From assembly GCF_000018105.1 (NCBI RefSeq), contig NC_009925.1:6210001-6242000 (forward strand): a stretch of 32,000 bases of DNA, read 5' to 3'. The notes beneath the pieces were generated by a model, which made no database searches, was not told the origin of the DNA, and saw nothing but the letters and a program-made list of their open reading frames with translations. Both the position numbers and the translations under genes were made by a program. Of this stretch, positions 3,657 through 32,000 are shown in pieces. This DNA comes from Acaryochloris marina MBIC11017 (GTDB taxonomy: Bacteria > Cyanobacteriota > Cyanobacteriia > Thermosynechococcales > Thermosynechococcaceae). Each line of letters opens with the position of its first letter. The stretch's first letter is position 1.

Positions 3657-3970
3657 GGGAGATTGAAAACAACTGTCACAACCTTACAGAAAATTTTTTT
3701 GTACAACTCTCAGATAAACTAAAGCATGCCCAAAGTCCCAAACAGCTTGGTTTGCTATTCAGTTTTATAGGTTTATTGAGAATGCTTACGAGCTAGGATG
3801 GGTTCAACAATTGTTAATTTAAATTAGCCAACCACTTTCGGTGAGAGTATTTCTGAACCATCATTGGCTAAATCGATGGGTACATTGGGCCTATCAGGGA
3901 TGAATAAGCCAATAGCTAACCATCCAATTGCATCATTGTTGGAAAAAAGAGAATATATAGGAATTCCTCC

Positions 3971-17434: not shown

Positions 17435-17448
17435 ATGAACATGGGGTT

Positions 17449-17520
17449 GCCATGGTCTATGGCTGGCCTGCCTCAAGAAGAGGAGCTACGCAAATGGCTA
17501 TCGCGCCTATCAACCCAGCT
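17449..17520 (+). repeat. 72-nt intergenic repeat, copy 2
   Basis: Direct-orientation copy of 15379-15450, starting 15 nt after the stop of the second NmrA gene. Confidence 0.7.
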
Positions 17521-17581
17521 ATTGGCCACCTTCGGAATGGCCTGATAGATGTTTTCAGAAACTTAGTTTGAGTACGTCCGT

Positions 17582-18265: not shown

Positions 18266-18304
18266 AAGTATCAGCAGAATATTTCTGGAGAACAAGGAGC
18301 AAGT

Positions 18305-18934
18305 ATGAAGATTGGCATCGTTGGGTCAGGCAATATCGGCGGCACACTGGGACGCCACTGGGCAGGTGTGGGGCATCAGGTGATGTTCAGCTCTCGCCAT
18401 CCCGAAACACTGCAGCCGATGGCGGATGCGGTCAATGCCCAAACCGGCACCGTTGAGGAAGCGACCAAGTTTGGAGATGTGATCTTGCTGGCGATTCCCT
18501 TTGGCAAAGTGCCGGACGTAGCTCAGCAGGTTGGGACACTTGACGGCAAGGTTTTGATTGATGCAGGGAATCCCTATCCCCAACGGGACGGTGCGGTTGC
18601 CCAGCAAGTGATCGATGATCCATCTCAGACAGCGACTGGCTATGTTTCTGCTCAGTTTTCAGGTGCGAAGACTATCAAGGCATTCAATTCGATCTACTTC
18701 AAGGTGCTGGAAGAGCAAGCATTCCAATCTGAAGATGCTCGCATCGCAGTACAGGTCTGTGGTGATGACGAACAGGCCAAAGCAACCGTTACGCAGCTTA
18801 TTGAGGAAATTGGCCTTGCTCCGCAAGATATAGGAGTTTTAGCCGATGGCATCTTGTTTGAGCCTGGGGCACCCCTCTATAACAAGAACCTGCCTATCTC
18901 TGAAGCTAAAGCCATTTTGCAACAGCTTCGGTAA
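18305..18934 (+). CDS. NADPH-dependent F420-reductase-like / COG2085-type NAD(P)-binding oxidoreductase (paralog of 13796)
   Basis: MKIGIVGSGNIGG Rossmann start, plus ..TIKAFN.. and ..VQVCGDDEQAK.. blocks. Confidence 0.75.
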   Translation: MKIGIVGSGNIGGTLGRHWAGVGHQVMFSSRHPETLQPMADAVNAQTGTVEEATKFGDVILLAIPFGKVPDVAQQVGTLDGKVLIDAGNPYPQRDGAVAQQVIDDPSQTATGYVSAQFSGAKTIKAFNSIYFKVLEEQAFQSEDARIAVQVCGDDEQAKATVTQLIEEIGLAPQDIGVLADGILFEPGAPLYNKNLPISEAKAILQQLR

Positions 18935-19046
18935 GCAAACTGGCATAAAAAACACAACACCCTTCGCGCTTGCATTCCCAAAAGCCATGAACGCTTTAGA
19001 GGTAAGTACCTCAATTCGACCTGTACACCTTATTCTCTAGTTTTCA

Positions 19047-20480
19047 GTGTTGATCATGATCGAACTTCCAGTTTTACCTTTACCCTCACAGTGGCCTCCA
19101 TCCGTTGTCTTGGCGGTAGTGGAATCAGACGAAAGCTTTACCAAAGCGGTCACGGCGTCTTTGCTAGTGACGGCAGGTCTGGTTTTCCTCCTCAGTGTCC
19201 TCCTCGGAGAACTCTGCACCCGGCTGAAGCTCCCCTCGGTGTTGGGCGACTTAGCCACTGGCATGATTCTAGGGGGCTCTGTTCTAAGTATTCTGGTCTT
19301 TGCAGAGGTTGATCAGGTCGCCAATGGTTCAATACTTCATCTGCTTGAACTGGCGACCGGTGCGCCACCCGATACGGTGATGAATGCCTATCAGTTTCAG
19401 ATGGGGGAATTCATCAATAACAGCGCCACCATTGGCTTGCTGACCCTTCTGTTTGTCACTGGATTAGAATCCGATCTAGAAGAGTTAATTCGCGTGGGTC
19501 CCCAGGCCGTTGCCGTGGCGATGACGGGCGTTTTTCTACCGCTGATCGGGGGTGCGATCGCACTCATCTACATCTTCCATGTCCCCACGATTCCTGCCAT
19601 TTTTGCCGGAGCAGCCCTGACTGCTACCAGTATCGGCATTACCGCCAATGTCTTACAGGAAATTGGCCATTTACAATCTGATGAAGGGCAAGTGATTCTT
19701 GGGGCCGCTATTCTCGACGATATTCTCGGAATCGTGGTCCTGGCCCTGACCCTGAGTCTTGTGGAAACAGGTTCTATTGAGCCGTCAAGTTTGATCCTGC
19801 TCGTGATCAATGCTGCCGTGTTTGTGCTGTTGGCGGTTCTGCTCAATCGCTATTTCTGCCCTGTGTTTACGAAGAATATTGAGCGATTTGATAACCCGGC
19901 TGCGTTACTGCTTTGCTCCTTTGCCTTTTTGAATATTTTGGCATTACTTGCGATCTCATTCGGCCTCGAAGCTCTCTTAGGCGCTTTCGCTGCAGGACTG
20001 GTTTTAGGCGGTACCAGTCAGAGGGAAAAACTGATGCGATTGGTGCAGCCCTTCGTGTTCGTTTACACGACCATTTTCTTTGTCACCATTGGCGCTAGCG
20101 TCAATCTGAACGTTCTGAATCCACTGGTGCCAGAAAACCGAGAGGGGCTGGTGATTGCTGCCTGTCTGATTGCGATTGCCGTAATCGGCAAGGTTATCGC
20201 GGGATTTACCATCCTTGGAGATAAACCGATTAACCGACTGGCCGTGGGTATAGGTATGATTCCTCGGGGAGAAGTAGGCTTGGTGTTTGCGGGGCTCGGA
20301 GCGTCCACTGGAGTTCTATCTGAGTCCCAGGATGCGGCGGTATTGATTATGGTCGTAGTCACAACGTTGATAGCGCCGCTCCTGTTGCGATGGGTCTTCC
20401 CGTCTCAACCCGAAATCTTAACGGCAGACACTGCCAAACGCTTTGCAGAAATAGAGGAAGCGGTAGGAGGAAAATTTTAA
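19047..20480 (+). CDS. cation:proton antiporter (Na+/H+ exchanger family, CPA2-like)
   Basis: 477-aa polytopic membrane protein with GLE.DL and IPRGEVGLVFA motifs typical of Kef/NapA-type exchangers. The start may be GTG 19047 or ATG 19056. Confidence 0.85.
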   Translation: MLIMIELPVLPLPSQWPPSVVLAVVESDESFTKAVTASLLVTAGLVFLLSVLLGELCTRLKLPSVLGDLATGMILGGSVLSILVFAEVDQVANGSILHLLELATGAPPDTVMNAYQFQMGEFINNSATIGLLTLLFVTGLESDLEELIRVGPQAVAVAMTGVFLPLIGGAIALIYIFHVPTIPAIFAGAALTATSIGITANVLQEIGHLQSDEGQVILGAAILDDILGIVVLALTLSLVETGSIEPSSLILLVINAAVFVLLAVLLNRYFCPVFTKNIERFDNPAALLLCSFAFLNILALLAISFGLEALLGAFAAGLVLGGTSQREKLMRLVQPFVFVYTTIFFVTIGASVNLNVLNPLVPENREGLVIAACLIAIAVIGKVIAGFTILGDKPINRLAVGIGMIPRGEVGLVFAGLGASTGVLSESQDAAVLIMVVVTTLIAPLLLRWVFPSQPEILTADTAKRFAEIEEAVGGKF

Positions 20481-20520
20481 GAATAATTGATGTCCTGTTT
20501 GCAAAATAAGGATTAATCCC

Positions 20521-21144
20521 ATGAATGACGCTGAAAATGCCTTAAGTGAACAGCTTGCTGCGATTCAAGCTCAACTTCAGCAACTCGGAACCCAGCTCAA
20601 TGAACTCCAGGCAAAGGTTTCACCCCTGCAGCAGTTATCTAAGCAAGTGACTAAAATTGAGCAACGTTTATTGGCTGTCGGCGATCTCTATCGTTATCAA
20701 CAGCTTCAAGACCACCTGGCCGCCCACCGTTGGTATGAGGCTGATCAAGAGACGATTCAACTCATACAAGAAATTGAAGGCGTGACAAATCTAGAACAGC
20801 TCACTCCCGATGACATTCGTACATTTCCCTGTGGTCAACTTCAAGTCCTGGATCAACTCTGGCAAAGTTATAGCGAAGAGAAGTTTGGTTTTAGTGTACA
20901 GGTCCGTATTTATCAAGAGGTGGGTGGTACATTTGACACGACGATCGCCCAGGATCAAAAACTAGTGGAGCAATGGGGAGAGCGCCTCGGCTGGCGAGAG
21001 GGCGATCGCTGGCGGAAATGCAGCGAACTGGATTTTTCTTTAGAGGCACCCTTGGGCTGCCATCCTTCTGGCTGGTGGAATTCGCCCTATGGGTCCAAAA
21101 TGACCAATTACTTTTTGGGGCGATTATTAATTTGTGAGCTTTAG
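20521..21144 (+). CDS. GUN4-domain protein with an N-terminal coiled coil
   Basis: Y..L...L....W.EADQET......E.........L...DI..FPC..L..LDQLW..YS..KFGFSVQ..IY is the GUN4-domain signature. Confidence 0.75.
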   Translation: MNDAENALSEQLAAIQAQLQQLGTQLNELQAKVSPLQQLSKQVTKIEQRLLAVGDLYRYQQLQDHLAAHRWYEADQETIQLIQEIEGVTNLEQLTPDDIRTFPCGQLQVLDQLWQSYSEEKFGFSVQVRIYQEVGGTFDTTIAQDQKLVEQWGERLGWREGDRWRKCSELDFSLEAPLGCHPSGWWNSPYGSKMTNYFLGRLLICEL

Positions 21145-21220
21145 GACATTTCCTGGGGCTGAGAAGGTTGCTGTCCAATACCCAACGGAAGCGTTTGCCA
21201 AACGATAGGAGACTAGAAAA

Positions 21221-21628
21221 ATGGACTTTCGATATATCTACACTCGACTCAATGTAGCGAACTTTCACGCCTGCAAAGCGTTTTACCGAGACATTATGGG
21301 ACTTCCGGTCAAGTTTGAAGATGATAGGGATGAATATGTCGAATTTGATGCCAACTCGATTCGGCTTACCCTATTCAATCGCCAAAACCTGGATAATTTT
21401 ATTCCCAAGGAAGAATCGCTCAGTTTTGATGTTCACAATGCTCAGATTGTGCTGTCATTCCAGGTCAGTAATTTGGAAGAGGCGACTACTCATCTCAAGA
21501 ATCACCAGGTAGAGCTGTTAGCCCCTCCTACCAGCTATCCGGATCGAGGATTTCTGTCCACCTGCTTTCGAGATCCAGACGGGAATTTGATTGAAATAGA
21601 GCAGATGACTGATGTACTCATTTCATAA
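21221..21628 (+). CDS. VOC-family (glyoxalase/bleomycin-resistance fold) protein
   Basis: 135 aa with an N-terminal ..I.L.V.N......FY.D..GL motif and a C-terminal F.DPDGN.IEI motif. Confidence 0.8.
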   Translation: MDFRYIYTRLNVANFHACKAFYRDIMGLPVKFEDDRDEYVEFDANSIRLTLFNRQNLDNFIPKEESLSFDVHNAQIVLSFQVSNLEEATTHLKNHQVELLAPPTSYPDRGFLSTCFRDPDGNLIEIEQMTDVLIS

Positions 21629-21812
21629 TTTAGCTATTGGATGTCAACCCCATAGGCGATGTCGCGACAACCACAAGGCGGATCAACCCCCAAATTTGGA
21701 CCGTATTATTTGGCGTACACTCCCTTTGCGTTAGCTCTTTTTCAGACCTCATACGATACCTTCAGAACAAAACGACAACCCGTGATCGAAATGACAACCA
21801 GTGATCGCTCGA

Positions 21813-22631
21813 TTATTTGGACTGGGATTTTTGAGGTGGAGACTGAGTTTGAGCCGTTCTCTGAGTCGCTGATTTGCGCCGATAACTATCGGCTTGAATT
21901 TTGATAATCAAGCCATGATGAATTAAGCGATCAATGGCAGCCACCGCCATCATCGAATCAGTGAAAATGTCATCCCATTGGCTGAAGGGTTGATTCGCTG
22001 TAATCAACAAACTTTTTCGTTCATAGCGATGCGCAATTAATTCAAACAGAACGGACGTTTCCGCTTCCGACTTTTTGCAATAGCCCAAGTCATCCAAGAC
22101 CAACAGATCATAGCGGTCCAGTTTTTTGAGCATTGGATGCAGCTGCAGTTGGAGCTTCGCCTGTTGCAAGTGTTGAACCAATGCGTTGGCTGCAAAGAAC
22201 TTCACCCGCTTACCGAATTCCAGCATCTTTTTGGACACTCCAGTGGCCAGATGTGTTTTTCCAACGCCCGAGGGTCCCAAAATAAGGCAGTTCTCGGCGC
22301 GCTCCAACCAACCCGGATCTGCGGCTAATTGCATCAAGGGAGCAGGATTGAGCTGGGGACAATGGCTAAAGTCAAAGTTGGTAAAACTTTTTGCGTTTGG
22401 GAGCCTGGCTTCGGTGAGAGCACGTTTTAGGCGAGCTTGTTCTCTTCTTTGGGCCTCCGTTTCGCACAAGGCTAGTAAGAATTCCGCATAGGACCAGTTT
22501 TCCTGCATGGCTTGGGATTCGATAGATTCCCAATGGGTCAACATGTGGGAGAGCCTGAGCTTTTTTAAATAGAGGCTCAGGTGCTGGTAGGGGCTCAGCG
22601 GGGACTGAGCAGGAGGGGAGGAGTTTGTCAT
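21813..22631 (-). CDS. istB: IS21-family helper ATPase IstB
   Basis: Walker A LILGPSGVGKTHLA, Walker B LLVLDDLGY, and IstB-type N- and C-termini. The start is ATG 22631 (MTNSS...) or 22655. Confidence 0.9.
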   Translation of the reverse strand: MTNSSPPAQSPLSPYQHLSLYLKKLRLSHMLTHWESIESQAMQENWSYAEFLLALCETEAQRREQARLKRALTEARLPNAKSFTNFDFSHCPQLNPAPLMQLAADPGWLERAENCLILGPSGVGKTHLATGVSKKMLEFGKRVKFFAANALVQHLQQAKLQLQLHPMLKKLDRYDLLVLDDLGYCKKSEAETSVLFELIAHRYERKSLLITANQPFSQWDDIFTDSMMAVAAIDRLIHHGLIIKIQADSYRRKSATQRTAQTQSPPQKSQSK

Positions 22632-24108
22632 AAAGTTCAAGTGAATGTTGTTCAATGCTGAGGTCAGGAACCTGCTTCATCTGAGGCGGCTCAAACTGTT
22701 TTTTCAGGCGATTGAGGGTAAGGCTGGATGAGCGAAGCTGCTGCTGTAAGTACACTGCTACGGCCTGTTCTTTATCTTGAACCGCAGCAATATACAGGGC
22801 TTCCACGATGATCTTGGCAGCCTGCTCCAGGTCAAATTGGGCTTTGAGCTGTTCCCAGATTTGGCGGTATTCAGGATTGGGAAGTAGGTCTGATTGCCAG
22901 GTGCAATAGATAAAAGCACGAGGCTTCAATCGCATTGAACCAATAACATGGCGATAGTTGATGCAACGGTCGCGACGTTTGCCTTTGCCACTGACACGCT
23001 TCCTCGGCAATTCCACGACTGGGTGTCGCTCTAGATAGCCGACAATCCGGTCGTGGTATAGATGCAGTTCCAATTGACGGCCAATTAGCCGAGAAGGAAC
23101 GGTGTATAGAATGCAACGAACATCAATGGTGCTGCGTTTACTGACTTTAGCGGTAAGCACTTCATAGTCAGGGGTTCGATATTTGGGCAAGGGTTGCAGA
23201 TGCTCTTTTTCTTGCTCATACTTGGCCTGGCACTGTTGATTCAACTTGGCAACCTGGGCATCAATCAAAGCTTGATACTCACCAACACTCGTAAAATCTG
23301 CACTGCCGCGCAGATAGATCGCCTGCTTAATTCGGTTTTTGAGATGGCCATGGGGAGATTCAATGGAGCCATTCTCATGGGCTACACCTTTGTTGTTACG
23401 AGTGGGTTCTAGCCGATAGTGGTCACACAGTTCGTCGTACAAACGCGTGAGGTTTTTGGACCGGCGGCCGCCCATGTTGCGATAGGCTGCACTCAAACTA
23501 TCAGTACGATGCTGTGTAGGAACACCTCCACAGGCTGCAAAGGCATTTTGCAATCCTTCTGAGAGGGCAACAAAGCTTTCGCCTCCTTGGATGATCTGGG
23601 CATATCGCCAGCCGCTATATCCCAGACGGTAATGGTATATCAGGTGCTCAAAGGGTTTGCCGGCAATGGTAATCGTGATGCCTTTGAGTTCTGTAAAATC
23701 GGAGAACCCTTGTACCCCGGGTTCATGACGCAATTCAAACATCACTTCAGGGCTTGGTCCATGTAAGGCTTTCCACGTTCTCACCCGACGTTGTAGGGTC
23801 CGCAGGACTTGGGGATACTGGCCTGGATACTTATCCTGCAGGTACTCATACAGGGTCATGGGTTTGAGGCGTGGGTCTCGACGCAGCATTGGTTCTAGCT
23901 CGTCTTCCCACACATCAGCTAAGGGGTCGGGAACGGTGCGTTGGTCCTGAAGGCGGCCGCGATTAGGTTGATGGGTGCCGGCCTCAATTCGTTGTCCGGT
24001 TCTTGTAGATATTTCGGCAATGTAAGCTGCTTCAGCTTGTTTCAAGCCGAGGTCTCTTCCGTTCATATAAACACGAGTATGATAGGAATCAATTCTTTTG
24101 TTAGGCAC
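22372..24108 (-). CDS. istA: IS21-family transposase IstA (open frame continues ~81 codons past the usual end, into istB)
   Basis: N-terminal HTH, a DDE core (..HRTDSLSAA.., ..HENGSIES..) and an IstA-type C-terminal region ending ..LELYDKLL. The low-complexity tail beyond that overlaps istB. Confidence 0.9.
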   Translation of the reverse strand: MPNKRIDSYHTRVYMNGRDLGLKQAEAAYIAEISTRTGQRIEAGTHQPNRGRLQDQRTVPDPLADVWEDELEPMLRRDPRLKPMTLYEYLQDKYPGQYPQVLRTLQRRVRTWKALHGPSPEVMFELRHEPGVQGFSDFTELKGITITIAGKPFEHLIYHYRLGYSGWRYAQIIQGGESFVALSEGLQNAFAACGGVPTQHRTDSLSAAYRNMGGRRSKNLTRLYDELCDHYRLEPTRNNKGVAHENGSIESPHGHLKNRIKQAIYLRGSADFTSVGEYQALIDAQVAKLNQQCQAKYEQEKEHLQPLPKYRTPDYEVLTAKVSKRSTIDVRCILYTVPSRLIGRQLELHLYHDRIVGYLERHPVVELPRKRVSGKGKRRDRCINYRHVIGSMRLKPRAFIYCTWQSDLLPNPEYRQIWEQLKAQFDLEQAAKIIVEALYIAAVQDKEQAVAVYLQQQLRSSSLTLNRLKKQFEPPQMKQVPDLSIEQHSLELYDKLLPSCSVPAEPLPAPEPLFKKAQALPHVDPLGIYRIPSHAGKLVLCGILTSLVRNGGPKKRTSSPKTCSHRSQAPKRKKFYQL

Positions 24109-24231
24109 TTGTACAGCCCTCTATTGATTAGGGATGTAAAAAGTGTCTTTTTTCTTGAGATTGAATTCTAGAAACGCGATCTCACACATCATTTCTAGGG
24201 AATTGAGATCTAGTTTTATCCTTCTCAGGGG

Positions 24232-24621
24232 ATGCCTGGTTTCTTCATAGCTATAGCCGACGTGACATCGTCATTGATCCGTCAGCTCGATTGTCGTCTA
24301 ATACTCAAGAAACTGATCCCCGCCGAAAAAGTTGAATTTGTTTCAGCCTCCATAGACCGGGCATTGTCATCATCCTGGTATCAGATTGAGCGTAAATTGG
24401 ATTCCTCTCAAGCCCTGATGGATGCCGTCACCATCTACGTCACTGGGGGGAGTTCTCAGCTCTGGCGTAAACAGCTCAAAGGGGTCTATGGTCGGCGGCT
24501 GAATTGCCTAGATGGCATCGCGAGAGAAATCGCAGAGACATTCCCCCAGCTAGACAAAGACCCCATGATTCTGAGAATGGCTGATGCTTATCTCACGATT
24601 AAAGGAATGGTGACCGCATGA
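24232..24621 (+). pseudogene. possible C-terminal remnant of an actin-like (ParM/StbA-type) segregation ATPase, cut off by the IS21 element
   Basis: The 129-aa frame abuts the IS21 end. It contains ..AVTIYVTGGSSQL.., which resembles the adenosine-binding ..V.L.GGGA.. motif, and a ..MADAYLTIKGM.. C-terminus like ..ANA.G... No N-terminal phosphate-binding motifs are present. The stop overlaps the next start (ATGA). Confidence 0.4.
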
Positions 24622-25019
24622 GCAATCGCAAAACCCTGAACCTCAATTTCAGCACCAGGCCAACCACTCGATTAGCGGCAACGATTGACACGATGAATGA
24701 GCTGTATGGCACAGACATCGAAGCAGCGACTGCCAACTTGCTGGAATACATGATGGCTCCAATGACTGCGGCGCTATCAGGTGCATCCAGAAGCGAAGTT
24801 GACGCCTTGATTGAGAAATCCTTGGCTCGGGCGAGATTGCATCTTGAATCGGCCCGTTTGCATCTGCCCTGTGATGAGCTTCCAGAAAAAGTTGCAGAAC
24901 CATTTGCCGCTCAAGAGGCATCTTGCCTATCCTCCCCACAAGAAGACTCTTCCCCACCCGATGAAGATGAAGAGTTTGATTACAGCAAACCCATTGGAGT
25001 ATTTGATGATGATTACTAG
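24618..25019 (+). CDS. hypothetical protein; possible ribbon-helix-helix ParR-like adaptor with an acidic C-terminal tail
   Basis: The N-terminal KTLNLNFSTRPTTRLAATIDTMNELYG fits a beta-strand/helix RHH start. The C-terminus is PPDEDEEFDYSKPIGVFDDDY. Translationally coupled (ATGA) to the ParM-like frame. Confidence 0.5.
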   Translation: MSNRKTLNLNFSTRPTTRLAATIDTMNELYGTDIEAATANLLEYMMAPMTAALSGASRSEVDALIEKSLARARLHLESARLHLPCDELPEKVAEPFAAQEASCLSSPQEDSSPPDEDEEFDYSKPIGVFDDDY

Positions 25020-25695
25020 TGAAATCTTAGACCTACTCAAAGTTGATAATGCTGAACTAGAAGAGATTCTGGAAGCTTGTAACTGGACGGGTACCACTGA
25101 GTTCACAGATGAGCAATCTGAGACCTTGTTGGTGATGAAAGCTCTCCATGATGAGAAAGGCCATGACTATATTGATGCGTACCTTCGCAGCATCGGTCAG
25201 AGGCTACAAGTGAATGACACTCTGTTCAATGAAATTTATGCCGCCATTGAAGCAGCGAATGGATTTCTGATTGACTACCGGGAGCGGTTTGAGGAGATTT
25301 GCCAACTGGTGAATGATTGTGTCTCTCCCGCTGAAGCCATCATCCCCCCTCAGCCTGTGGTCGAGGATACGCCCCCAGTAGCTGAGGTCGAGGCTGATCC
25401 TGAATCAGTCCAGATGGATAAATTTATTGATGAGCAGGCGAACGCTGCCATAGCGACCACGATCTCTCAAATCAAAGGGTTTGCAGATCTGGCCTATGAG
25501 GAACAGGAGCGGCTGAAGACTCTATTTATGACCAAGTATCGCCAGGGTTTAGCTAAAGAACTTCTCTCAGAGGAATTCAAAGCTGAATTTATGGCACGGA
25601 TGACCGCTAGCTTGGAGGGCAAAGGAGCTGAAAAAAAGCAGGGAGAACTCACTGGAGTACAGAACCCTACGCCATTGTTGTCCAGCAGCAACTAA
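25006..25695 (+). CDS. hypothetical acidic protein (229 aa)
   Basis: ATG at 25006/25009 with GGAG about 8 nt upstream; overlaps the previous gene by 14 nt. The ORF-track start at 24811 lies inside the previous gene and was rejected. No family recognised. Confidence 0.6.
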   Translation: MMITSEILDLLKVDNAELEEILEACNWTGTTEFTDEQSETLLVMKALHDEKGHDYIDAYLRSIGQRLQVNDTLFNEIYAAIEAANGFLIDYRERFEEICQLVNDCVSPAEAIIPPQPVVEDTPPVAEVEADPESVQMDKFIDEQANAAIATTISQIKGFADLAYEEQERLKTLFMTKYRQGLAKELLSEEFKAEFMARMTASLEGKGAEKKQGELTGVQNPTPLLSSSN

Positions 25696-25703
25696 CCGCC
25701 CGG

Positions 25704-25970
25704 ATGGATGGCCTGCTTGCGGAAAACGAGAAGGCTATCAAACAGCGCATTGTTGATTTAAAGCTCAAAGACAAAGAAATCAGTCAGCTTGAAAAGCTCC
25801 AGCGAATAAAGCGGACTGAGAGGGAAATTAAACGAGAAGGGACATGGTTCAAAATCGCGTTTATTGGCATCGGCATTCTCATTGGTCTTCCAGTTGGGGG
25901 CTTCCTCAATCACCTAGTTGGGCAGAATGCGGCTGTATCTTCGTCCATTGAGCAGGTTTCGGGGAAGTGA
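25704..25970 (+). CDS. hypothetical coiled-coil protein with a C-terminal TM helix (88 aa)
   Basis: A K/E-rich heptad-like N-terminal half is followed by FKIAFIGIGILIGLPVGGFL. Lies 8 nt after the previous stop. Confidence 0.55.
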   Translation: MDGLLAENEKAIKQRIVDLKLKDKEISQLEKLQRIKRTEREIKREGTWFKIAFIGIGILIGLPVGGFLNHLVGQNAAVSSSIEQVSGK

Positions 25971-25980
25971 TTTCGGGGGT

Positions 25981-26187
25981 GGTGTTGGGGATTGTGGTTT
26001 TTGCGATCGCGCCATCGATACCAATCCTCGATATCGCATCTATTAATTCACCCAGTCTTTCAACTTTTCAAAATCTCTATGGATTTTGTGTTACCTATCT
26101 GATTCCCCACCTATCTACTCAATACCAATGCTCTAACTTTTCATTTTCTCTGTGGATTTTGTATTACCTGACTATAGGGACTCAGCT
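25981..26187 (+). repeat. structured intergenic module, copy A (hairpin element 25981-26052 plus 21-nt boxes at 26080-26100 and 26153-26173)
   Basis: Hand alignment to copy D (27736-27935) shows the same order of parts: G-rich arm, HIP1 loop, C-rich arm, CGATATCG, CTATTAATTCAC, two TGGATTTTGT(A/G)TTACCT boxes, then 14 nt to an ATG. Confidence 0.8.
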
Positions 26188-26274
26188 ATGAAAGTAACTC
26201 TAGACCAACCAGAACAAGAACCTGAAACCATCGCCCGAATGCTGACGGAAAACTACATTATGGAGGTTATCTAA
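26188..26274 (+). CDS. possible 28-aa leader ORF (MKVTLDQPEQEPETIARMLTENYIMEVI)
   Basis: ATG lies 14 nt after box A2, with AGGGA about 10 nt upstream. The stop overlaps the next ATG (TAATG). Translated by hand; below the ORF-track cut-off. Confidence 0.3.
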   Translation: MKVTLDQPEQEPETIARMLTENYIMEVI

Positions 26275-26384
26275 TGAAAGGCCGTCTGATTGTTCTTCTG
26301 ATCCTGATTACCCCCTTACTGATCCTCGCAGGCTCCATTGGTTGGGTCTTAGGGATTAGTGCCTGGATTTTGATACTGAAGTGA
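26274..26384 (+). CDS. 36-aa hydrophobic single-TM peptide (MKGRLIVLLILITPLLILAGSIGWVLGISAWILILK); type I toxin-like or small membrane protein
   Basis: Strong GGAGG 9 nt upstream of the ATG, and coupled to the 28-aa ORF. Basic N-terminus, an uninterrupted hydrophobic core and a terminal Lys. Translated by hand. Confidence 0.45.
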   Translation: MKGRLIVLLILITPLLILAGSIGWVLGISAWILILK

Positions 26385-26457
26385 GGTACTCCCATTCCCT
26401 CAGCGACCAAATCGCTTGATCAGGGTTGAAGGCATCCTAGTATTTCATTTTCCAGGC

Positions 26458-26560
26458 AGATTCTGTGTTGCCTAGATGTGATGACCTATGGTTGGTCGCA
26501 GACCATCGCAACTCCAATACCCATCGCCAATACCAACCTCCAGACTTCACACCTAACCAA
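26458..26560 (+). repeat. structured intergenic module, copy B (degenerate box 26458-26478 plus divergent hairpin element 26489-26560)
   Basis: TTCATTTTCCAGGCAGATTCTGTGTTGCCTAG parallels the box A2 context TTCATTTTCTCTGTGGATTTTGTATTACCTGA. AACTCCAATACC...CCAATACCAACCTCC parallels the C-rich arms of copies C and D. Confidence 0.55.
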
Positions 26561-26636
26561 ATAAAACGACCCCTTAGCTCTTCCAGTCCAAGAGGTCGTT
26601 ACCAATCCTTTCCCTAAATTATAACGAGGTCACCCA

Positions 26637-26861
26637 ATGACGACTAACCCCTTTTTCGGCTACTACGAGCAAATCTGGATCGACCACCAGACCGACTATG
26701 GCCAGCACCCAGACCCATGCACAGGACTGCCATCAGACCAGATCTTAGACCGGGTTTCGTCCTGGCTGGCTGAGTTTAACCCGCTGCTTCCACCTGAGTC
26801 TCAGCTATCTGAGAGTATCCGGGTGGGCATTGTCCAGCGATTTTATGGGTGGCAGCTATGA
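26637..26861 (+). CDS. hypothetical protein (74 aa)
   Basis: ATG with GAGG about 9 nt upstream; no family recognised. Confidence 0.55.
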   Translation: MTTNPFFGYYEQIWIDHQTDYGQHPDPCTGLPSDQILDRVSSWLAEFNPLLPPESQLSESIRVGIVQRFYGWQL

Positions 26862-26944
26862 CAAATACTCAAAACCATGATGACTCTTCAGGTTGGGAGG
26901 GGGAGAGTTTTGCAATTGCATGTATTGATGATGTGCCGTTTTAA
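26858..26944 (+). CDS. possible 28-aa acidic ORF (MTNTQNHDDSSGWEGESFAIACIDDVPF) coupled by ATGA to the 74-aa ORF
   Basis: Translated by hand. The stop lies 1 nt before hairpin element C. Confidence 0.25.
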   Translation: MTNTQNHDDSSGWEGESFAIACIDDVPF

Positions 26945-27020
26945 GTATTGGGGTTCGTACTGTGGCAATGAAATCGCAAACTCCAATACCAACTCCCGAC
27001 ATTGCACCTATTAATGCATC
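26945..27020 (+). repeat. structured intergenic element, copy C (hairpin GTATTGGGGTT / AACTCCAATAC plus CCCGACATTGCACCTATTAATGCA)
   Basis: The 11-bp stem has 10 Watson-Crick pairs and one G:T (26945-26955 with 26979-26989). The 3' flank aligns to copies A and D. Confidence 0.7.
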
Positions 27021-27083
27021 CAATCTCTAACTTTCTGTTTTTCGACGAATAAAGTAAATCTTGCAAACTTACAGGTCAAATCA

Positions 27084-27626
27084 ATGCCATTACTAAACAT
27101 ACATTATCGAACAACGCTCGACCCTCTCACTGACCCCGACCATGCAGAAAAAGCCCTTAACGAAATTAAGAAGTTCTGGGTCCTAAACGTACAATCTGAT
27201 TTAGACAGTATCGAGACTGCATTTAAAGAAGAATTTCCCACTTACAAAATTTTTCTGCCTGATGTAGACCATTTGAAGCTTGCTCATCCGATCCCCGAGA
27301 AAAAAACGTTAGAGTACCAAAACTCTTTCGAGTACATCTCTAAGAATTATCTGGAGACTTACACCGATACATACGACAAAAGCGAGTATCCTGATTTAAT
27401 CCCTTGGGATGAGCAGTTTGCTTGGGACGGTAGTTATAACAGGAAGACAGTAACCCATCCCCTTCATAAATACCCCCAGTGGGATAAGCTAGCCCTTTTA
27501 GTCGATGACGAGGAAGGCAAGGCTAACGATATATTTTTGAGAGGTCTTTTTGAGCAGGTGCTCCCCTGTTTAGATGATGAGGGTAATCCGCAATTTAAGG
27601 GTGATGACTACCATATTCTAGGGTAA
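27084..27626 (+). CDS. hypothetical protein (180 aa), AT-rich coding sequence
   Basis: Long ORF with a plausible hairpin after the stop. No family recognised. Confidence 0.65.
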   Translation: MPLLNIHYRTTLDPLTDPDHAEKALNEIKKFWVLNVQSDLDSIETAFKEEFPTYKIFLPDVDHLKLAHPIPEKKTLEYQNSFEYISKNYLETYTDTYDKSEYPDLIPWDEQFAWDGSYNRKTVTHPLHKYPQWDKLALLVDDEEGKANDIFLRGLFEQVLPCLDDEGNPQFKGDDYHILG

Positions 27627-27635
27627 GGCCCAAGA

Positions 27636-27655
27636 GTGAGAGGGTTGTCTCTCAC
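27636..27655 (+). terminator. stem-loop GTGAGAG-GGTTGT-CTCTCAC 10 nt after the 180-aa ORF
   Basis: Perfect 7-bp stem with a 6-nt loop, followed by CAGGATTTTG (a weak U-tract). Confidence 0.45.
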
Positions 27656-27735
27656 CAGGATTTTGAACCCTTGGCAAATGTGGTCTTTGTAATATCAAAG
27701 CTATATCTCTGGTGATGTGCTGTTTTGAGTGTGAG

Positions 27736-27935
27736 TTATTGGTATTGGGGTTTGCGATCGCACTCCAAAACCAATTCCCGATATCGTACCTATTAATTCA
27801 CTCAAGTTTTTAGATTCCCTGTGGATTTTGTATTACCTATCTCACTTCTTCACTCATCTATATCAAGCCAAGGTCAATACTATATCTTTTGGATTCCCTA
27901 GGGATTTTATATTACCTATCTCTTGAGACTGATCC
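27736..27935 (+). repeat. structured intergenic module, copy D (hairpin element 27736-27802 plus boxes at 27822-27842 and 27901-27921)
   Basis: The stem 27738-27750 / 27763-27775 has 11 Watson-Crick pairs, one G:T and one mismatch out of 13. A HIP1 octamer sits in the loop. The rest is colinear with copy A, and an ATG follows 14 nt after box D2 (27936). Confidence 0.8.
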
Positions 27936-28004
27936 ATGCCAGCAAAAACTGTAAACCTGGATCGACTCTTCGGCTCTCTCAATCTCACCTGAACTATTAA
28001 GCAC

Positions 28005-29005
28005 CTAGCTAAAATTAATTACATAATCATCGCCGTAGGCTTTCAAAACTCTTTCCACATATTCGACCAAAGATGACCACCCCCAGTAGGCACTCATTTC
28101 AATCCACTGATATTTCATGAATTGCCACAGACGCTCAATCAAATTTAGATGGGGAGAATAGCTTGGCAACTCAAACAAGGTAATTCCCCGTTCGGCCCAC
28201 TCTGCTTTCATCTCATAGATTGATTGGCTCGTATGGATAGGGGCTTGATCCACCACAATGACGGTGGGCAACTCCACGTCAGCAAAAAAGGTATCAATGC
28301 AATGACTGACAACCTCACTGGTGATGGTCTGTTCTGATGTATAAGCATGTAGCCCTTGTCGTCGACTCAAAAACCCCAGAACATTCAAGCGTTTACTTGA
28401 ACGAGTCGGTATTTCCAGATACGTCCCTATGGGTTGCCATCCATAGGGAATACAGGGGACTAACGAAAAACCACTCTCATCCATAAAGAATAGATGGATG
28501 TCTCCCTTCTCTTCCTGTTCCTTGAGATGTTCTAACTGCTGTTTTTTTCGAGGTAGTGGGCATATAAAGGCTGGCCTGATGTCCCTTGGCGAAAGCGATG
28601 CCAGCTCATGTCCATCTGCTTCAAGACGCGTTTAACTGTGGCCTTTGACACGCGTACTGACCACTGTTGTTCAATCTGAGCTAACACCTGATTGAGTTGG
28701 ATGGGAGATGCCTGAGTCCACTCATAAATCTGCTGTTGTTGGTCGGGATTAAACATCGGTTTTCGACCTCGACCTGGGTGATTATAGAGTCCTGCAAATC
28801 CTCGGTTGTTCCAAGCCTTAAGCCAGTTGTAAACCGTTTTAGGACTCACACTAAAAAGGGAGGCTAAGGTGTAGGGGGGCCAACCCTGGGCGAACAAAAT
28901 GAGGCAATGGGCGCGTTGTCTGACCTGATGATGGCGACTACTGTGATAAATCCGATGCAATAAGCGTAAGCTTTCGGTGGAGATAGGACGGACTAATAAC
29001 ATCAA
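28005..29005 (-). CDS. IS630-family DDE transposase encoded in two frames (HTH part 28532-29005, DDE part 28005-28484 plus upstream open frame)
   Basis: The N-terminal part has HTH / winged-helix motifs. The C-terminal part has FMDESGF, VVDQAPIH and LNLIERLW motifs (DDE triad context). The downstream frame stays open through the A7 run and reads ...PRKKQQLEHLKEQEEKGDIHLFFMDESGF. Confidence 0.85.
28541..28547 (-). promoter_or_regulatory. candidate -1 programmed ribosomal frameshift heptamer A_AAA_AAC joining the two transposase frames
   Basis: In the upstream frame the minus strand reads CTC GAA AAA AAC AGC AGT TAG. The downstream frame is at -1 and is open across the site. Confidence 0.55.
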
Positions 29006-29300
29006 ATCAATGGATGTAAACAGAGGACTCAGGTAGTTTACAACCAGGAAATTCTATGTAATTAATTTTGTTCATCTGCTTATCAACGTTGATTTCTCCG
29101 AATTTACGCTAGGTGTCTCTTGCACATGCGATCTCTGGCGTGTATTACTGTTAACAGGTTTCGGAATAGATTAGGCAGGAAATGTTTGTGATACGCTCAA
29201 GCCTTTGAGTTGTCAATCCTCCTGCAAGATTAACTCAATAAAGGTACACAACAGGGTAGTCTCTTTGGCAGGGTGTTGTGCTGGTCAAGGTTGAAGCTTG

Positions 29301-29699
29301 ATGGAAGTCGTCCACCATTTGCAAGGCAACTTGGAAATCATCGTATCTTTTTTAGAAGTAGTACTGGAAGCAGTAGCGGCTTTTTGTATTGTGTTGGGCC
29401 TGCTCGTGAGCATCAAGCTCTCGGTTAATTTGCGCCGTCGTCGCTCAACTATACAGTTCCCATTGGGACGATTGCGGTTAACTTTTGGACGATGGTTAGC
29501 ATTAGCTCTGGAGTTTCAATTGGGGGCAGATGTCTTAGCCACGACCGTTGCTCCTACGTTTGAGGCACTCGGGAAACTGGGTGCCATCGCAATCATTCGT
29601 ACCTTTCTCAACTACTTTCTGAACAAAGAACTGATCGAGGTCTTTGAGATGCAAAAGCGCTTTGATGAGGACGAGACGGATTTATCCAACTCCAATTAA
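29301..29699 (+). CDS. DUF1622-family small membrane protein
   Basis: 132 aa. Pattern: TM helix, basic loop, then FGRWLALALEFQLGADVLATTV....LG.L..I..IRT.LNYFL, as recalled for DUF1622 proteins. Confidence 0.6.
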   Translation: MEVVHHLQGNLEIIVSFLEVVLEAVAAFCIVLGLLVSIKLSVNLRRRRSTIQFPLGRLRLTFGRWLALALEFQLGADVLATTVAPTFEALGKLGAIAIIRTFLNYFLNKELIEVFEMQKRFDEDETDLSNSN

Positions 29700-30030
29700 C
29701 CAGATCTGGATGTGAGTTGGATAATTCTAGTTGAGTGAGGATGGTTTAGCATCTTCACTTCTGCTTAGCCCTCTTTTATCACTTTGGTAGAAGAGTATCT
29801 GTAGGCTTGAAGTTACATGAGTGCTTGGCCTGATGATTGGCTTCACCCCAAACATAATTACGTCGTTTCAAATTTCATTTATCTGAAGTGATAAAGCTTC
29901 CTAACCACGTTCACCCCAATTCCAATAACCCTGTGATGATTAAGTCTTGTTCATTGGCATTCTTGTGATGTTTGCCTTTTCTCCTCTATGGGAACAATAA
30001 GTCTGATTGAGGCATTCATTGTCATTCAAG

Positions 30031-30068
30031 AAAAAACACCGCTCTTGGGGAAGAATGTGGTGTTTTTT
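30031..30068. terminator. bidirectional-looking hairpin AAAAAACACC...GGTGTTTTTT in an ORF-free gap
   Basis: The 10-bp outer stem pairs an A-tract with a T-tract, with partial inner pairing. T-runs on both strands follow the stem. Confidence 0.4.
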
Positions 30069-30117
30069 CTTTTAAGGCGCAAGCTTCATGAGCCATTTTT
30101 CGATTAAGAAAGAAAAC

Positions 30118-30145
30118 AGCCCCTACCTTTGTCGTCATAGGGGCT
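30118..30145 (-). terminator. hairpin AGCCCCTA-N12-TAGGGGCT with a U-rich tail on the minus strand
   Basis: Perfect 8-bp GC-rich stem. On the minus strand it is followed by GTTTTCTTTCTT. Confidence 0.4.
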
Positions 30146-30410
30146 AGATATTCCTATTTCCTTGATGAAGTAATCAGGTTCGTAATAGCTGATTAGACTG
30201 ATTTTGCCCAAAGGGACTCAAGATCTAACATCGAGACTAAAAACTTACACCTAGAATTTAGGAGGGAAGATTGTCCAATATCGGTTTAAGCCGCCGTTAA
30301 TCATAAAAACAACATTAATTTTTTTATACTTTTTTAACTAAATATTTATAATTTCTTTGGCATTGAATGTTCTCCTCGTATCCGTTCCTCGATCATCTAG
30401 TGGAGACATC

Positions 30411-30590
30411 ATGTTTTCCTCCCGAATTTCGCCTGAAGCAGCCACATCTCTATTCGGTCTTACCCTGACTGACATTCGCCAAGCTATTTACAACGGAGAG
30501 CTACCTGCACAATGGAATCATGGCTCTCCCTTGTTGTCTTATACTGATTTGCTGAATTATCAATTTAGAAAAGTGTCCAAGTCTGCTTAA
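30411..30590 (+). CDS. small helix-turn-helix protein, excisionase/AlpA-like (59 aa)
   Basis: ATG at 30411 with GGAGA 6 nt upstream. ISPEAATSLFGLTLTDIRQAIYNGELPA fits the excisionase-type HTH pattern (..EAA..LG.S..TI...I..G.LPA). The longer TTG start at 30357 was rejected. Confidence 0.55.
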   Translation: MFSSRISPEAATSLFGLTLTDIRQAIYNGELPAQWNHGSPLLSYTDLLNYQFRKVSKSA

Positions 30591-30790
30591 CCCTTCAATA
30601 CTTGCTTGGAGATTCTATATTCAACACCCAACAGAACGGTCGGTTATACCCAATGATTACTCAAAACATGCAGGTTAAGACTGTCTCCATCCCCCATGTC
30701 ATTGAGCTGTGTTGCATACAGCTATGAGGGGAATTATGGCTATTGAACCATAGACGTAGAGATACCTATCACTCGTTGAATTTCAACTCC

Positions 30791-30822
30791 GGCCTTTAAT
30801 TTCGTTAAACCGAATTAAAGCC
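30791..30822. terminator. imperfect hairpin GGCCTTTAATTTCG-TTAAA-CCGAATTAAAGCC between convergent genes
   Basis: About 12 paired positions with two single-nt bulges, lying between the 30590 (+) and 30834 (-) gene ends. No clear U-tract. Confidence 0.3.
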
Positions 30823-30833
30823 CCAAGCCCCAC

Positions 30834-31247
30834 TCACAGACTACTTGGCTGAACCCCTCGAAGGCCAATCTCTCGGATCCATACCTTAGAGAATTGCCCC
30901 AAGCTTTTTCCTGGAGTCATCAGGCTTTCAAAGCCCTCACTGAGTTGGACAATGAATCCCTGCCTCCATCGGTCCCAATCGGTTTGCTTGGGATAGTCAA
31001 TCTCGTCACAGTACTCCGTCCAGCTTTCTTGTTGAAACTCGGAAGCACATAAAGAAGTTCCTTTCTCTTGCACCTGAATGAAATGGTGATCAATCAATTC
31101 TTGGATAAATGGTGGGTGGCCGCTTGAAAGTTCATTATCATCCAGCACTGGGAACTCATAGACAAGCCGAAGTTCTTCCACAGAATGTTTTTTAGCAAGT
31201 CTGAGGAGTTCTAGTTGTGGGAGTGAAAGAGATGGGATATTGGCCAT
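30834..31247 (-). CDS. hypothetical protein (137 aa)
   Basis: ATG with GGAGA about 7 nt upstream; no family recognised. Confidence 0.6.
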   Translation of the reverse strand: MANIPSLSLPQLELLRLAKKHSVEELRLVYEFPVLDDNELSSGHPPFIQELIDHHFIQVQEKGTSLCASEFQQESWTEYCDEIDYPKQTDWDRWRQGFIVQLSEGFESLMTPGKSLGQFSKVWIREIGLRGVQPSSL

Positions 31248-31579
31248 AGGTTATCTCCATCATCCAGATCATGTATATTGAACCAGCTTTAAATATATAT
31301 CTGTGAATTGATAGATGTTTACTCAGAATGCCTCAGCAACTTATCGATACCAGCCTTGATTGCTCGGAGTAAATCACGATCCCCGTTGCGACTGTTCATA
31401 CTGACCGTTAGCTACTGGGTTAGAGAGTCCATACGCTGAAATACTCTATCAGCAAGTCTTTTGGTTTCCTCAAATTGTGTCCTCATCGCCTCAATGGATC
31501 GGGCAGTAGACTGGATGATCTGAGTAATTGGGATATACCAGTACTTCAATACGGTCCAGTTAATTTGAGTCAATGCTGG

Positions 31580-31750
31580 TCATCGCTGTTTCTCATCCCT
31601 GGAAACCAAGGGTTGTAGAGATTTGATATCTGTAATCCAGCGATGCAGCGCACTTTCAGCAAGATCCCTTGTGGTACTCACGACCGTCTGAATGGTCTCT
31701 TTGCCACTGGTGTGAAAGACGATGAAGGAAAACTCACGAAGCTCAGTCAT
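31580..31750 (-). CDS. hypothetical small protein (56 aa, MTELREFSFIVFH...)
   Basis: The ATG at 31750 overlaps the upstream ORF stop (ATGACTGA, 8-nt overlap), implying translational coupling. The ORF-track start at 31789 is less likely. Confidence 0.45.
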   Translation of the reverse strand: MTELREFSFIVFHTSGKETIQTVVSTTRDLAESALHRWITDIKSLQPLVSRDEKQR

Positions 31751-31973
31751 CCCCACCTCGTTTAAGCACCCATAATTCAACTGCCTCACCGATTAGGTCA
31801 AGGACTGTTGGAGACGATTCAATGTTAGTGCGTGGGTCGAGGTCATTACCCTCCTCAATGGCTTCCGAAGAGATGCTCTCCATTCCAGCTTCAATCAATT
31901 CATCAGATAGAAAGCTTGGTAATAAATAGTACAAATGCTCTAACTTTTCTCTTTGTACCTCGAAATCGGACAT
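31743..31973 (-). CDS. hypothetical acidic small protein (76 aa)
   Basis: ATG preceded by AAAGGGG about 10 nt upstream. It is the first gene of a minus-strand string of small ORFs. Confidence 0.5.
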   Translation of the reverse strand: MSDFEVQREKLEHLYYLLPSFLSDELIEAGMESISSEAIEEGNDLDPRTNIESSPTVLDLIGEAVELWVLKRGGDD

Positions 31974-32000
31974 TTTTCTATACCCCTTTCTATTTCTCGT

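Follow-up and report, generated by a model that had tools for sequence, protein, structure and literature searches.

A hairpin-and-box repeat at the joints between small genes in a plasmid-derived region of the Acaryochloris marina chromosome

Results

Anatomy of the module and its copies

This study concerns a repeat family in a 32,000-nucleotide (nt) stretch of Acaryochloris marina MBIC11017 (NC_009925.1, positions 6,210,001 to 6,242,000), referred to here as the window, in whose coordinates positions are given. The remains of a four-gene operon of ParM/ParR partition type are followed by a string of small co-directional genes, and between these genes stand copies of a composite module (Table 1). 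Alignment of 16, then 22 copies gave its anatomy: a hairpin with a core block behind it, then one or two copies of a box. An earlier note on this DNA had described four such elements and had offered three readings of them, as a new kind of cassette boundary, as a combined RNA-structure, promoter and operator unit, or as iteron or centromere DNA. The repeat family is real and previously undescribed, it is of a familiar functional kind, and nothing points to a new mechanism. The comparison set consisted of 12 related loci, from plasmids of four cultured strains and from metagenomic or metagenome-assembled genome (MAG) contigs. Loci carry L numbers, where L001 is pREC4, L007 is pREC1, L145 is pREC3, L137 is the RU_4_1 lineage and L139 is the MBIC10699 chromosome; winA and winC are window copies A and C.

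Copies A, C and D of the earlier note and their conserved 3′ block are present far above chance. A profile built from the three matches them at E = 1e-18 to 1e-23, and a repeat search recovered the 44-nt 3′ block at 26012, 26980 and 27762. The same search returned the box family at 26066, 26139, 26443 (degenerate), 27808 and 27887, in lengths of 31–41 nt, and so recovered the four 21-nt boxes described before with their spacings of 73 and 79 nt. When the 17-nt box core was allowed up to 3 mismatches, 5 matches were found in the window against 0.22 expected, and none of 100 shuffles reached 5; the degenerate fifth box that had been noted at 26458 was matched with 3 mismatches. Words like CCAATACCAA occur 12 times against 2.2 expected, half of them inside 26119-27774. 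The standing of copy B is mixed, in that it is a degenerate relative of the type seen at L002 2940-3005 and L145 6630-6700 but was missed by the A/C/D profile. It has an internal 13-nt duplication and lacks TATTAAT; it travels with the 74-amino-acid (aa) gene downstream, and the block 26527-26861 is found again at more than 10 sites on plasmids. An eroded extra arm proposed at 29911-29932 gave no profile match at E <= 10, and the 32-kb window, scanned with the profile and the box core, held no further copies beyond the array. The degenerate box at 26443 is a unit whose gene has been deleted.

Table 1. Features of the repeat array, the preceding operon and the flanking insertion sequences in the window (ORF, open reading frame; HTH, helix-turn-helix)
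Feature	Position	Strand	Remarks
IS21-family element	21813-24108	-	istA 22372-24108, istB 21813-22655; sits inside ParM/ALP gene
ParM/ALP (actin-like partition ATPase), C-terminal remnant	24232..24621	+	94% to L001 5001-5318, the end of the 341-aa pREC4 gene
ParR-like partner, 133 aa, acidic C-terminus, pI 4.3	24618..25019	+	second operon position in all plasmid homologues
Conserved protein, about 225-228 aa, third operon gene	25009..25695	+	Acaryochloris only
Coiled-coil and transmembrane protein, 88 aa, last operon gene	25704..25970	+	stop codon inside foot of hairpin A
Hairpin A	25967..26037	+	G/T-rich 5′ arm, HIP1 loop, C/A-rich 3′ arm; ~20 pairs including 9 G·U
Core block A (ATCGCATCTATTAATTCACCCAGTCTTTCAAC)	26033..26064	+	profile E = 1.2e-8; family of 21 matches, all + strand
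Box 1, module A	26061..26100	+	repeat search, box profile
Box 2, module A	26135..26173	+	ends 14 nt before ATG 26188; equal spacing at L002 1677-1715 and L006 8104-8139
Overlapping small ORFs, 28 aa and 36 aa	26188..26384	+	ATG 26274 overlaps stop of first ORF
Degenerate box, then directly ATG-TGA	26443..26478	+	3 mismatches at 26458-26474; 74% identity in repeat family D1
Element B, degenerate variant (…GACCATCGCAACTCCAATACC…CTTCACACCTAACCAAAT)	26484..26560	+	resembles L002 2940-3005, L145 6630-6700
74-aa acidic protein gene	26637..26861	+	widespread on Acaryochloris plasmids
31-aa ORF, internal-deletion remnant of ~301-aa gene	26849..26944	+	joins both ends of L002 coding sequence 1980-2885
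Hairpin C (GTATTGGGGTT / AACTCCAATAC)	26945..26989	+	begins 1 nt after stop codon
Core block C	27001..27031	+	no box behind; 180-aa gene starts 27084; homology with L004 ends 27026
180-aa acidic protein gene, pI 4.6	27084..27626	+	Acaryochloris only
Hairpin D (ATTGGTATTGGGG / CTCCAAAACCAAT), HIP1 in loop	27738..27775	+	preceded by '…DDVPF*' gene-end remnant 27712-27729
Core block D	27783..27814	+	profile match
Box 1, module D	27803..27842	+	repeat search, box-core scan
Box 2, module D, contains palindrome TCCCTAGGGA	27883..27921	+	ends 14 nt before ATG 27936
18-codon truncated remnant of 123-aa gene family	27936..27992	+	window 27884-27989 aligned with family starts
IS630-family element, closes array	27998-29082	-	28-nt inverted repeats 27998-28025 and 29055-29082; DDE_3 and HTH domains

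Hairpin and core block

In the hairpin, a 5′ arm rich in G and T is joined to a 3′ arm rich in C and A by a loop that varies in length and most often contains HIP1; behind the hairpin stands the sequence-conserved core ATCACACCTATTAATTCACCCAGTCTTTCAA. The arm pairings given earlier for C and D are correct, and HIP1 does lie in the loop of both A (26003) and D (27754). The hairpin starts 0–5 nt after the upstream stop codon in winA, winC, L001a, L002a, L002b, L003a, L012, L134a, L135a and L136/L137, and every one of the 21 core matches is on the gene strand. All lineages examined have a hairpin behind the four-gene operon, including those with an unrelated hairpin sequence, such as L004 and L006 with their different stems; the short stem after the operon of L007 was read by eye only.

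The fold had been claimed to be strand-specific. This is clear for hairpin A, with a minimum free energy of -27.5 kcal/mol on the + strand (z = -2.96) compared with -11.9 kcal/mol (z = 0.08) on the - strand, but not for the other window copies, which score z = -1.96 (D), -1.15 (C) and -0.71 (B) so that only A is clearly better than shuffles; hairpin C is not strand-specific, at -15.7 (+) versus -17.5 (-). The orthologues of hairpin A in L134a, L012, L135a and L003a have folding energies between -31 and -39 kcal/mol, and among the homologous stems those of L134a (-39.3 kcal/mol, z = -7.2), L012 (-33.0, z = -4.8) and L137 (-42.7, z = -9.7) stand out from shuffles. The L137 stem is perfect over ~19 bp; CUUUUCAG comes next, with a box directly behind, and this stem with its tail is close to a canonical terminator. 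A stable GC-rich stem-loop directly after a gene, the first mark of an intrinsic terminator, is thus present in winA, L134a, L012 and L137; the second mark, a U-tract, is missing, with L137 and its CUUUUCAG coming nearest.

A hand-drawn helix of 21 pairs, laid over seven orthologues, pairs in 87% of cells compared with 38–54% when the partners are slid, and the stem pairs that vary toggle between G-C and G-U, A-U and G-U, or U-A, U-G and C-G. In a strand-neutral alignment, arm transitions that keep G·T pairing number 36 on the + strand and 11 on the - strand, although the repeat copies are closely related and this bias does not represent 47 independent events. By copy, 11 lean to the +, 4 are even and 1 leans to the -. 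We read these patterns as a real stem selected on the transcribed strand, a terminator-like or 3′-protective hairpin, for which covariation supplies no proof.

Box

The box spans ~35 nt and reads TTTCAnATTCT-N4-GGATTCTGTATTACCTA; the consensus of 35 distinct copies is TTTCAnATTCT-N4-GGATTCTGTATTACCTAR. It lies on the gene strand in 40 of 43 matches. The last box before a gene ends ~14 nt ahead of the start, with 20–22 nt from TATTAC to ATG and a GGAG-like Shine-Dalgarno sequence between, and the ATG that had been placed exactly 14 nt behind the second box is seen at both 26188 and 27936. The spacing is fixed in four unrelated families, namely the 28-aa pair, the 123-aa family, the family of L006:8428 and L007:9237, and the L145 191-aa family. 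A motif shared by several unrelated genes and fixed relative to their starts is one mark of repressor-controlled establishment promoters. Within the box, the arms ATTCT…GGATTCT are conserved, and variants hold the loop-less palindromes TCCCTAGGGA and TTACCTAGGTAA, a symmetry that would suit a dimeric DNA binder. Boxes also head arrays far from parM, in L145 and at L006 15199. In L137 the box is the only conserved sequence between the strong stem and the next gene. Because the stem there is a near-canonical terminator, the next gene needs a promoter of its own, and the box is the only conserved candidate. The module including the box keeps 79–86% identity among plasmids that cannot be aligned in their backbones and share only 29% identity in the adjacent 225-aa protein, a conservation well above that of the neighbouring backbone.

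Separable halves and shuffling

The two halves of the module are inherited separately. L007 has boxes with neither G-rich hairpin nor core, winC has hairpin and core with no box, and blocks of homology between plasmids end between core and box, inside box 1, just after box 1 or at the ATG. Since the halves occur apart and homology ends between them, the hairpin and core travel with the upstream gene and the box with the downstream gene. Most ends of homology blocks in the window are close to modules (about 7 of 10 are ~10 nt or less from a module part), and the small genes have been shuffled between plasmids. The impression of a cassette array arises from homologous exchange at shared regulatory repeats, and breakpoints at several places of the module are as expected of ordinary homologous recombination between repeats.

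Distribution

By DNA searches the family is restricted to Acaryochloris plasmids, at 1–4 places per plasmid (blastn), and blastn returned none outside Acaryochloris. A metagenome scan with the 17-nt box core gave at least 120 single matches, none with core or extended box, and these matches are due to chance. A strict 21-nt core pattern run over genomes, the only search by which chromosomes were sampled, returned one Acaryochloris MAG with 2 copies and 3 chance matches, and this pattern misses even the copies of the window itself. Rfam gave nothing relevant, either for the whole window at gathering thresholds or for 25800-28050 at E <= 1.

Plasmid layout and the four-gene operon

The 12 related loci have a common layout. 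A relaxase operon of MobF/TrwC type on one strand is followed by an intergenic region and then by plasmid-specific iterons; on the opposite strand come genes for ParM/ALP, the ParR-like protein, the ~225-aa protein and the ~88-aa membrane protein, and then the repeats among small co-directional genes. The arrays meet convergent genes, among them ArdC-like and HigBA genes and, in some plasmids, one for a sigma-70 factor. The intergenic region after the relaxase operon contains inverted repeats and a conserved TGTAGT motif on the + strand and is a candidate origin of transfer (oriT). Candidate sites, in which an inverted repeat is followed by …TGTAGT(G/T)… on the + strand between the relaxase operon and parM, lie at L004 4598-4680, L006 4810-4895, L001 ~3960-4010 and L134 ~6270-6320 and loosely resemble the F nic region.

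The closest plasmid is pREC4, 94% identical across 1.8 kb. Directly upstream of its parM, at L001 4079-4225, are at least 10 iterons of 11 bp, GGGTACCA (GGGTACCAnnA), and this array is a classical parC centromere; other plasmids have different repeats at the same place (L004 4635-4669, L012 4466-4524). The ParM/ALP orthologues are annotated as ParM/StbA or match Pfam ALP_N. The 133-aa protein has no Pfam match, and its operon position together with the parC iterons of L001 suggests a ParR-like role. The ~228-aa product of the third gene likewise lacks a Pfam match; tblastn found it on 7 Acaryochloris plasmids at 29–95% identity, and a protein search gave 13 clusters, of which every named one is Acaryochloris.

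At L145 4577-7935 (pREC3), beside a Tn3-family transposon, boxes and B-type elements accompany another string of small genes that all point the same way. This array is far from the relaxase locus, and therefore the units are not confined to the oriT-proximal region. Sigma-70-family genes, all on the - strand and oriented towards oriT, are found at L004 13109-13846, L137 8335-9150 and L139 15708-16514, near ArdC-like, HU and AbrB-like genes in the same plasmid-derived regions. A plasmid-borne sigma factor could be the reader of the non-canonical boxes.

A chromosomal relic

The replicon had been taken for a plasmid, which is wrong for the window. Positions 17083-32000 (L139 1-14917) match the chromosome of A. 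marina MBIC10699 (AP026075.1, at 3.04 Mb) with 99.59% identity, and judging by this match the window is chromosomal, and the array is therefore a chromosomal relic of a plasmid region. The ParM/ParR-plus-array segment is a plasmid-derived island amid ordinary chromosomal genes (Na+/H+ exchanger, GUN4, glyoxalase), partly decayed and riddled with insertion sequence (IS) elements and deletions. The ParM-type gene is interrupted by IS21 and only its last 129 codons are left (24232-24621), with the upstream parC and oriT gone; the ~301-aa gene has shrunk to an ORF of 31 codons; the box at 26443 is followed by ATG-TGA; and the module D gene is truncated after 18 codons, with IS630 next. The IS630 element of the window is 96% identical to the copy at L004 1-1070.

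Small genes between the repeats

Most of the proteins encoded between modules are small and acidic (isoelectric point, pI, 4.1–5.0), without Pfam domains and restricted to Acaryochloris; examples are those of window 26637-27626, L001 6860-7222, L002 3068-3439, L004 8998-9390 and L134 9920-10324. They are reminiscent of anti-restriction or DNA-mimic proteins, for which homology gives no support. Of the coupled ORFs behind module A, the second encodes a single-transmembrane peptide (MKGRLIVLLILITPLLILAGSIGWVLGISAWILILK). The 28-aa/36-aa pair is kept at 87–90% nucleotide identity in L002, L006 and L007, and the differences in the 36-aa ORF are biased to third codon positions (5/1/7, 4/1/6 and 5/1/6 by codon position). 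The coupled layout recalls small membrane toxins of hok/mok type; both ORFs are unannotated. A 74-codon ORF across module A (25967-26191) was considered as a gene and rejected, as the same frame stops after 16 codons in L002.

The 31-aa ORF preserves both ends of its parent gene, with window 26858-26930 corresponding to L002 1980-2052 and window 26924-26962 to L002 2865-2903. The 123-aa family starts that align with window 27884-27989 are those of L002 3068-3439, L003 6603-6971 and L007 8874-9248. A separate short hairpin, terminator-like and unrelated to the repeat family, lies 10 nt past the 180-aa gene at 27636-27655 (GTGAGAG-N6-CTCTCAC, then CAGGATTTTG).

Discussion

The explanation we favour, and hold to be somewhat probable, is that the module is a joint between two small transcription units, consisting of a terminator-like RNA hairpin and a co-regulated promoter/operator. 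The hairpin and core would form the 3′ end of the upstream gene and act in the + strand transcript as a terminator-like or 3′-end-protecting stem-loop, while the one or two boxes would belong to the downstream gene and work at the level of double-stranded DNA, as a promoter with built-in operator. Many small genes on co-resident plasmids may then be switched together by one trans-acting factor. Of the three readings offered in the earlier note, the combined RNA-structure, promoter and operator unit fits best with the hairpin at the stop codon, the fixed distance from box to ATG and the co-orientation of all parts. The family has its place in the establishment region of the MobF/TrwC conjugative plasmids of Acaryochloris. 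By analogy, this flank of oriT would be the first to enter the recipient, and the likely logic there is that the genes are expressed briefly upon transfer and then repressed.

Several observations weigh against this explanation. Besides the relatedness of the copies that underlie the wobble bias, the compensatory covariation that the earlier note had proposed as a check on the stem was not detected. MAFFT with RNAalifold on 12 copies gave 0 such pairs and a consensus of 6 pairs only, and in the hand-drawn structure of the seven orthologues 2 pairs changed on both sides compared with 1.6 in shuffles, in both cases with copies too closely related to give the comparison power. No U-tract follows the window hairpins, whose tails read AUAUCGCAUCUAUUAAUU, and the terminator scan flags no module, in agreement with the earlier statement that these are not canonical intrinsic terminators; nor did the consensus scan find a sigma-70 promoter at any module. 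The conservation of the core block (CACCTATTAATTCACCCAGTC) is unexplained by a simple terminator tail. In the box, TTTCAn and TATTAC are poor matches to sigma-70 hexamers, TATTAC does not end in the usual T, and at the -11 position G is found in 7 of 35 boxes. Finally, Pfam searches with 40 proteins assigned a DNA-binding domain to none of the array genes and gave no candidate regulator.

An alternative that we regard as possible but doubtful would confine the whole module to RNA, with one long transcript from a parM promoter in which the hairpins are intercistronic stabilisers or processing sites and the boxes, instead of being promoters, are RNA operators in 5′ untranslated or intercistronic regions, targeted by a translational repressor or small RNA. 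The box end fixed 14 nt before the ATG, directly upstream of the Shine-Dalgarno sequence, would be explained by this, as would the lack of a convincing sigma-70 match, the missing U-tract of the window hairpins, which makes read-through plausible, and the co-directional parts with a wobble bias favouring the + strand. But it would not account for a box that has no conserved predicted RNA structure and whose loop-less palindromes suit binding in double-stranded DNA, for boxes heading arrays far from parM, or for L137, where the 19-bp GC-rich stem with its CUUUUC tail leaves the next gene in need of its own promoter.

Regulation by a promoter-borne repeat, as favoured here, has precedents. In the IncN plasmids pKM101 and R46, CUP repeats are binding sites of ArdK upstream of several genes, as described in a passage of PMC6289460 that cites Delver & Belogurov (1997). 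There, as in our explanation, a repeated sequence before several leading or establishment genes combines promoter and repressor site in one regulon, according to the same passage. Repeats of both kinds also mark mosaic joints, and the Acaryochloris modules differ in adding an RNA-type hairpin upstream, in the fixed 14-nt distance to the start and in their cyanobacterial host. The likeness is one of function, taken from the literature and not from sequence comparison, with the Acaryochloris side of it being the function proposed here, and no ArdK homologue was identified. A second parallel is Bacillus p576, in which four establishment-gene promoters have repeated heptamers bound by the ribbon-helix-helix (RHH) repressor Reg576 (PMC6294495). 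Small establishment genes of p576 and the related pLS20 family, ardC included, share motifs near or within their promoters, and in p576 one RHH repressor shuts the promoters off, giving transient expression after transfer (PMC6294495). ArdC-like genes occur in the same Acaryochloris plasmid regions, but on the opposite strand and without a box, and the p576 heptamers are TTATCCC whereas the Acaryochloris box has 35 nt. The hairpin half is most like terminator or repetitive extragenic palindromic (REP) stem-loops, in the GC-rich stem right after a stop codon on the transcribed strand, the tolerated G·U pairs and a sequence that drifts while the stem is kept; it is unlike them in that the window copies have no U-tract, that 30 nt of conserved core stand behind the stem and that the family appears tied to one plasmid context and not genome-wide.

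Signals in single-stranded DNA appear unlikely to us. Here hairpin and core would be priming sites for synthesis of the complementary strand or Frpo/ssi-type promoters on the transferred strand in the recipient, as in the leading regions of F-like and IncI plasmids, where several structured repeats with strand-specific folding stand between genes (PMC11541004). The arrays occupy the flank of oriT expected to be first into the recipient, with relaxase genes diverging from oriT as in R388 and F; the inverted repeat with TGTAGT on the + strand suggests that the + strand would be transferred, and it is this strand that folds better and shows the G·T bias; and several copies per leading region recall the multiple Frpo of F-like plasmids (PMC11541004). 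That strand assignment draws on the R388/F analogy and the TGTAGT motif. A Frpo is a long fold of single-stranded DNA whose stem mimics the -35 and -10 elements, and it serves genes templated by the transferred strand. The whole Acaryochloris module of 205–220 nt, by contrast, folds as single-stranded DNA no better than shuffles on either strand (z = -0.2 to -1.1; for the two strands, A -0.75 and -1.08, D -0.91 and -0.17), and its stem has no -35/-10 pair resembling TTGACA and TATAAT. The genes point away from oriT, opposite to the leading genes served by Frpo (PMC11541004), and a transferred + strand would be the coding strand and not the template and therefore cannot drive them. A signal at the DNA level would also have no reason to begin at stop codons.

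A dedicated recombination site bounding mobile cassettes, integron-like and with an unrecognised recombinase, is similarly improbable. The shuffled genes, the homology blocks beginning and ending at modules, the modules ~80% identical between otherwise unalignable backbones and the imperfect inverted repeat with variable centre formed by the arms all agree with it, and to this extent the earlier suggestion of a cassette boundary holds as a description. As a mechanism it finds little support. Pfam searches of all window ORFs of at least 90 aa find only the IS21 and IS630 transposases, and in the 12 related loci there is no consistent tyrosine or serine recombinase, only one weak Phage_int_SAM_1 fragment in L134. 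Breakpoints are scattered, and many units lack the hairpin (L007). The attC sites of integrons have the ends 5′-RYYYAAC … GTTRRRY-3′, fold on the bottom strand and are accompanied by IntI and attI. The Acaryochloris element shares with attC a variable-length imperfect inverted repeat at the 3′ end of small, promoter-poor, co-directional genes and a strand-biased fold, but its arms read GT(A/G)TTGGGG … CCCCAA(C/T) on the + strand, the reverse of attC polarity, with the better fold on the coding strand; the arrays have neither integrase nor attI, their junctions are not at one nucleotide, and each unit seems to have its own control box. We give very little credence to a variant of this idea in which hairpin and core are a genuine exchange site on the + strand, single-stranded during conjugation, read by a relaxase-like or HUH-type enzyme or another recombinase that would recognise the stem together with the conserved 3′ tail (…ATCACACCTATTAATTCAC). 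If it were true, small establishment or anti-defence genes would be swapped between the many co-resident megaplasmids in integron-like fashion without an integrase, with the boxes serving as a separate switch for each cassette.

A selfish or neutral family like miniature inverted-repeat transposable elements (MITEs) or REP sequences, with no role for the genes, is very unlikely. It would be in keeping with the decay of copies (B, the box at 26443, winC without a box) and with HIP1 and heptamer-like CCAATNC repeats, which are common cyanobacterial repeat material, but the elements lack both terminal inverted repeats and target duplications, the boxes are repeated directly, orientation is strictly single with fixed distances to stop and start codons, and the copies are few, both per plasmid and in the window, chromosomes having been sampled with the one strict 21-nt pattern; the generic MITE or REP that the earlier note had considered would not readily fit such copies. 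That the boxes are iterons, centromere sites or DnaA boxes is hardly credible in spite of the nearby ParM/ParR remnant, the repetition of the 21-nt boxes and the agreement of TGTGGATTT with 7 of 9 positions of the DnaA box, since the closest intact plasmid has a true parC of at least 10 iterons upstream of parM, identical boxes occur on plasmids that differ in parC and parMR type and are never tandem, and the DnaA-like part TGTGGAT falls on non-conserved box positions, TGT before GGATT not being conserved.

To our knowledge almost nothing is known of the establishment of conjugative plasmids in cyanobacteria, and Acaryochloris can hold as many as nine megaplasmids side by side. Dozens of small genes beside oriT, mostly acidic in their products and unannotated, have a single box in common; this defines a candidate regulon and could be a handle on its regulator, and such a regulon could provide a list of candidate establishment or anti-defence genes in the phylum. 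The shared repeats explain the reshuffling of small genes between plasmids. For the window, the practical message is that it contains a decaying plasmid fragment in a chromosome, whose repeats are regulatory joints and not a new mobile-cassette mechanism.

Other observations

At L005 8650-8889 a 79-aa 'hypothetical protein' is annotated over the hairpin and core of a module, and the identical sequence of L004 is unannotated; the annotation is probably an over-call. Elsewhere in the window are a weak HicB-like antitoxin ORF (152-457) and a resistance-nodulation-division (RND) efflux pair of an HlyD-type adaptor and an AcrB-type pump (7904-12531), both ordinary and unrelated to the repeats.

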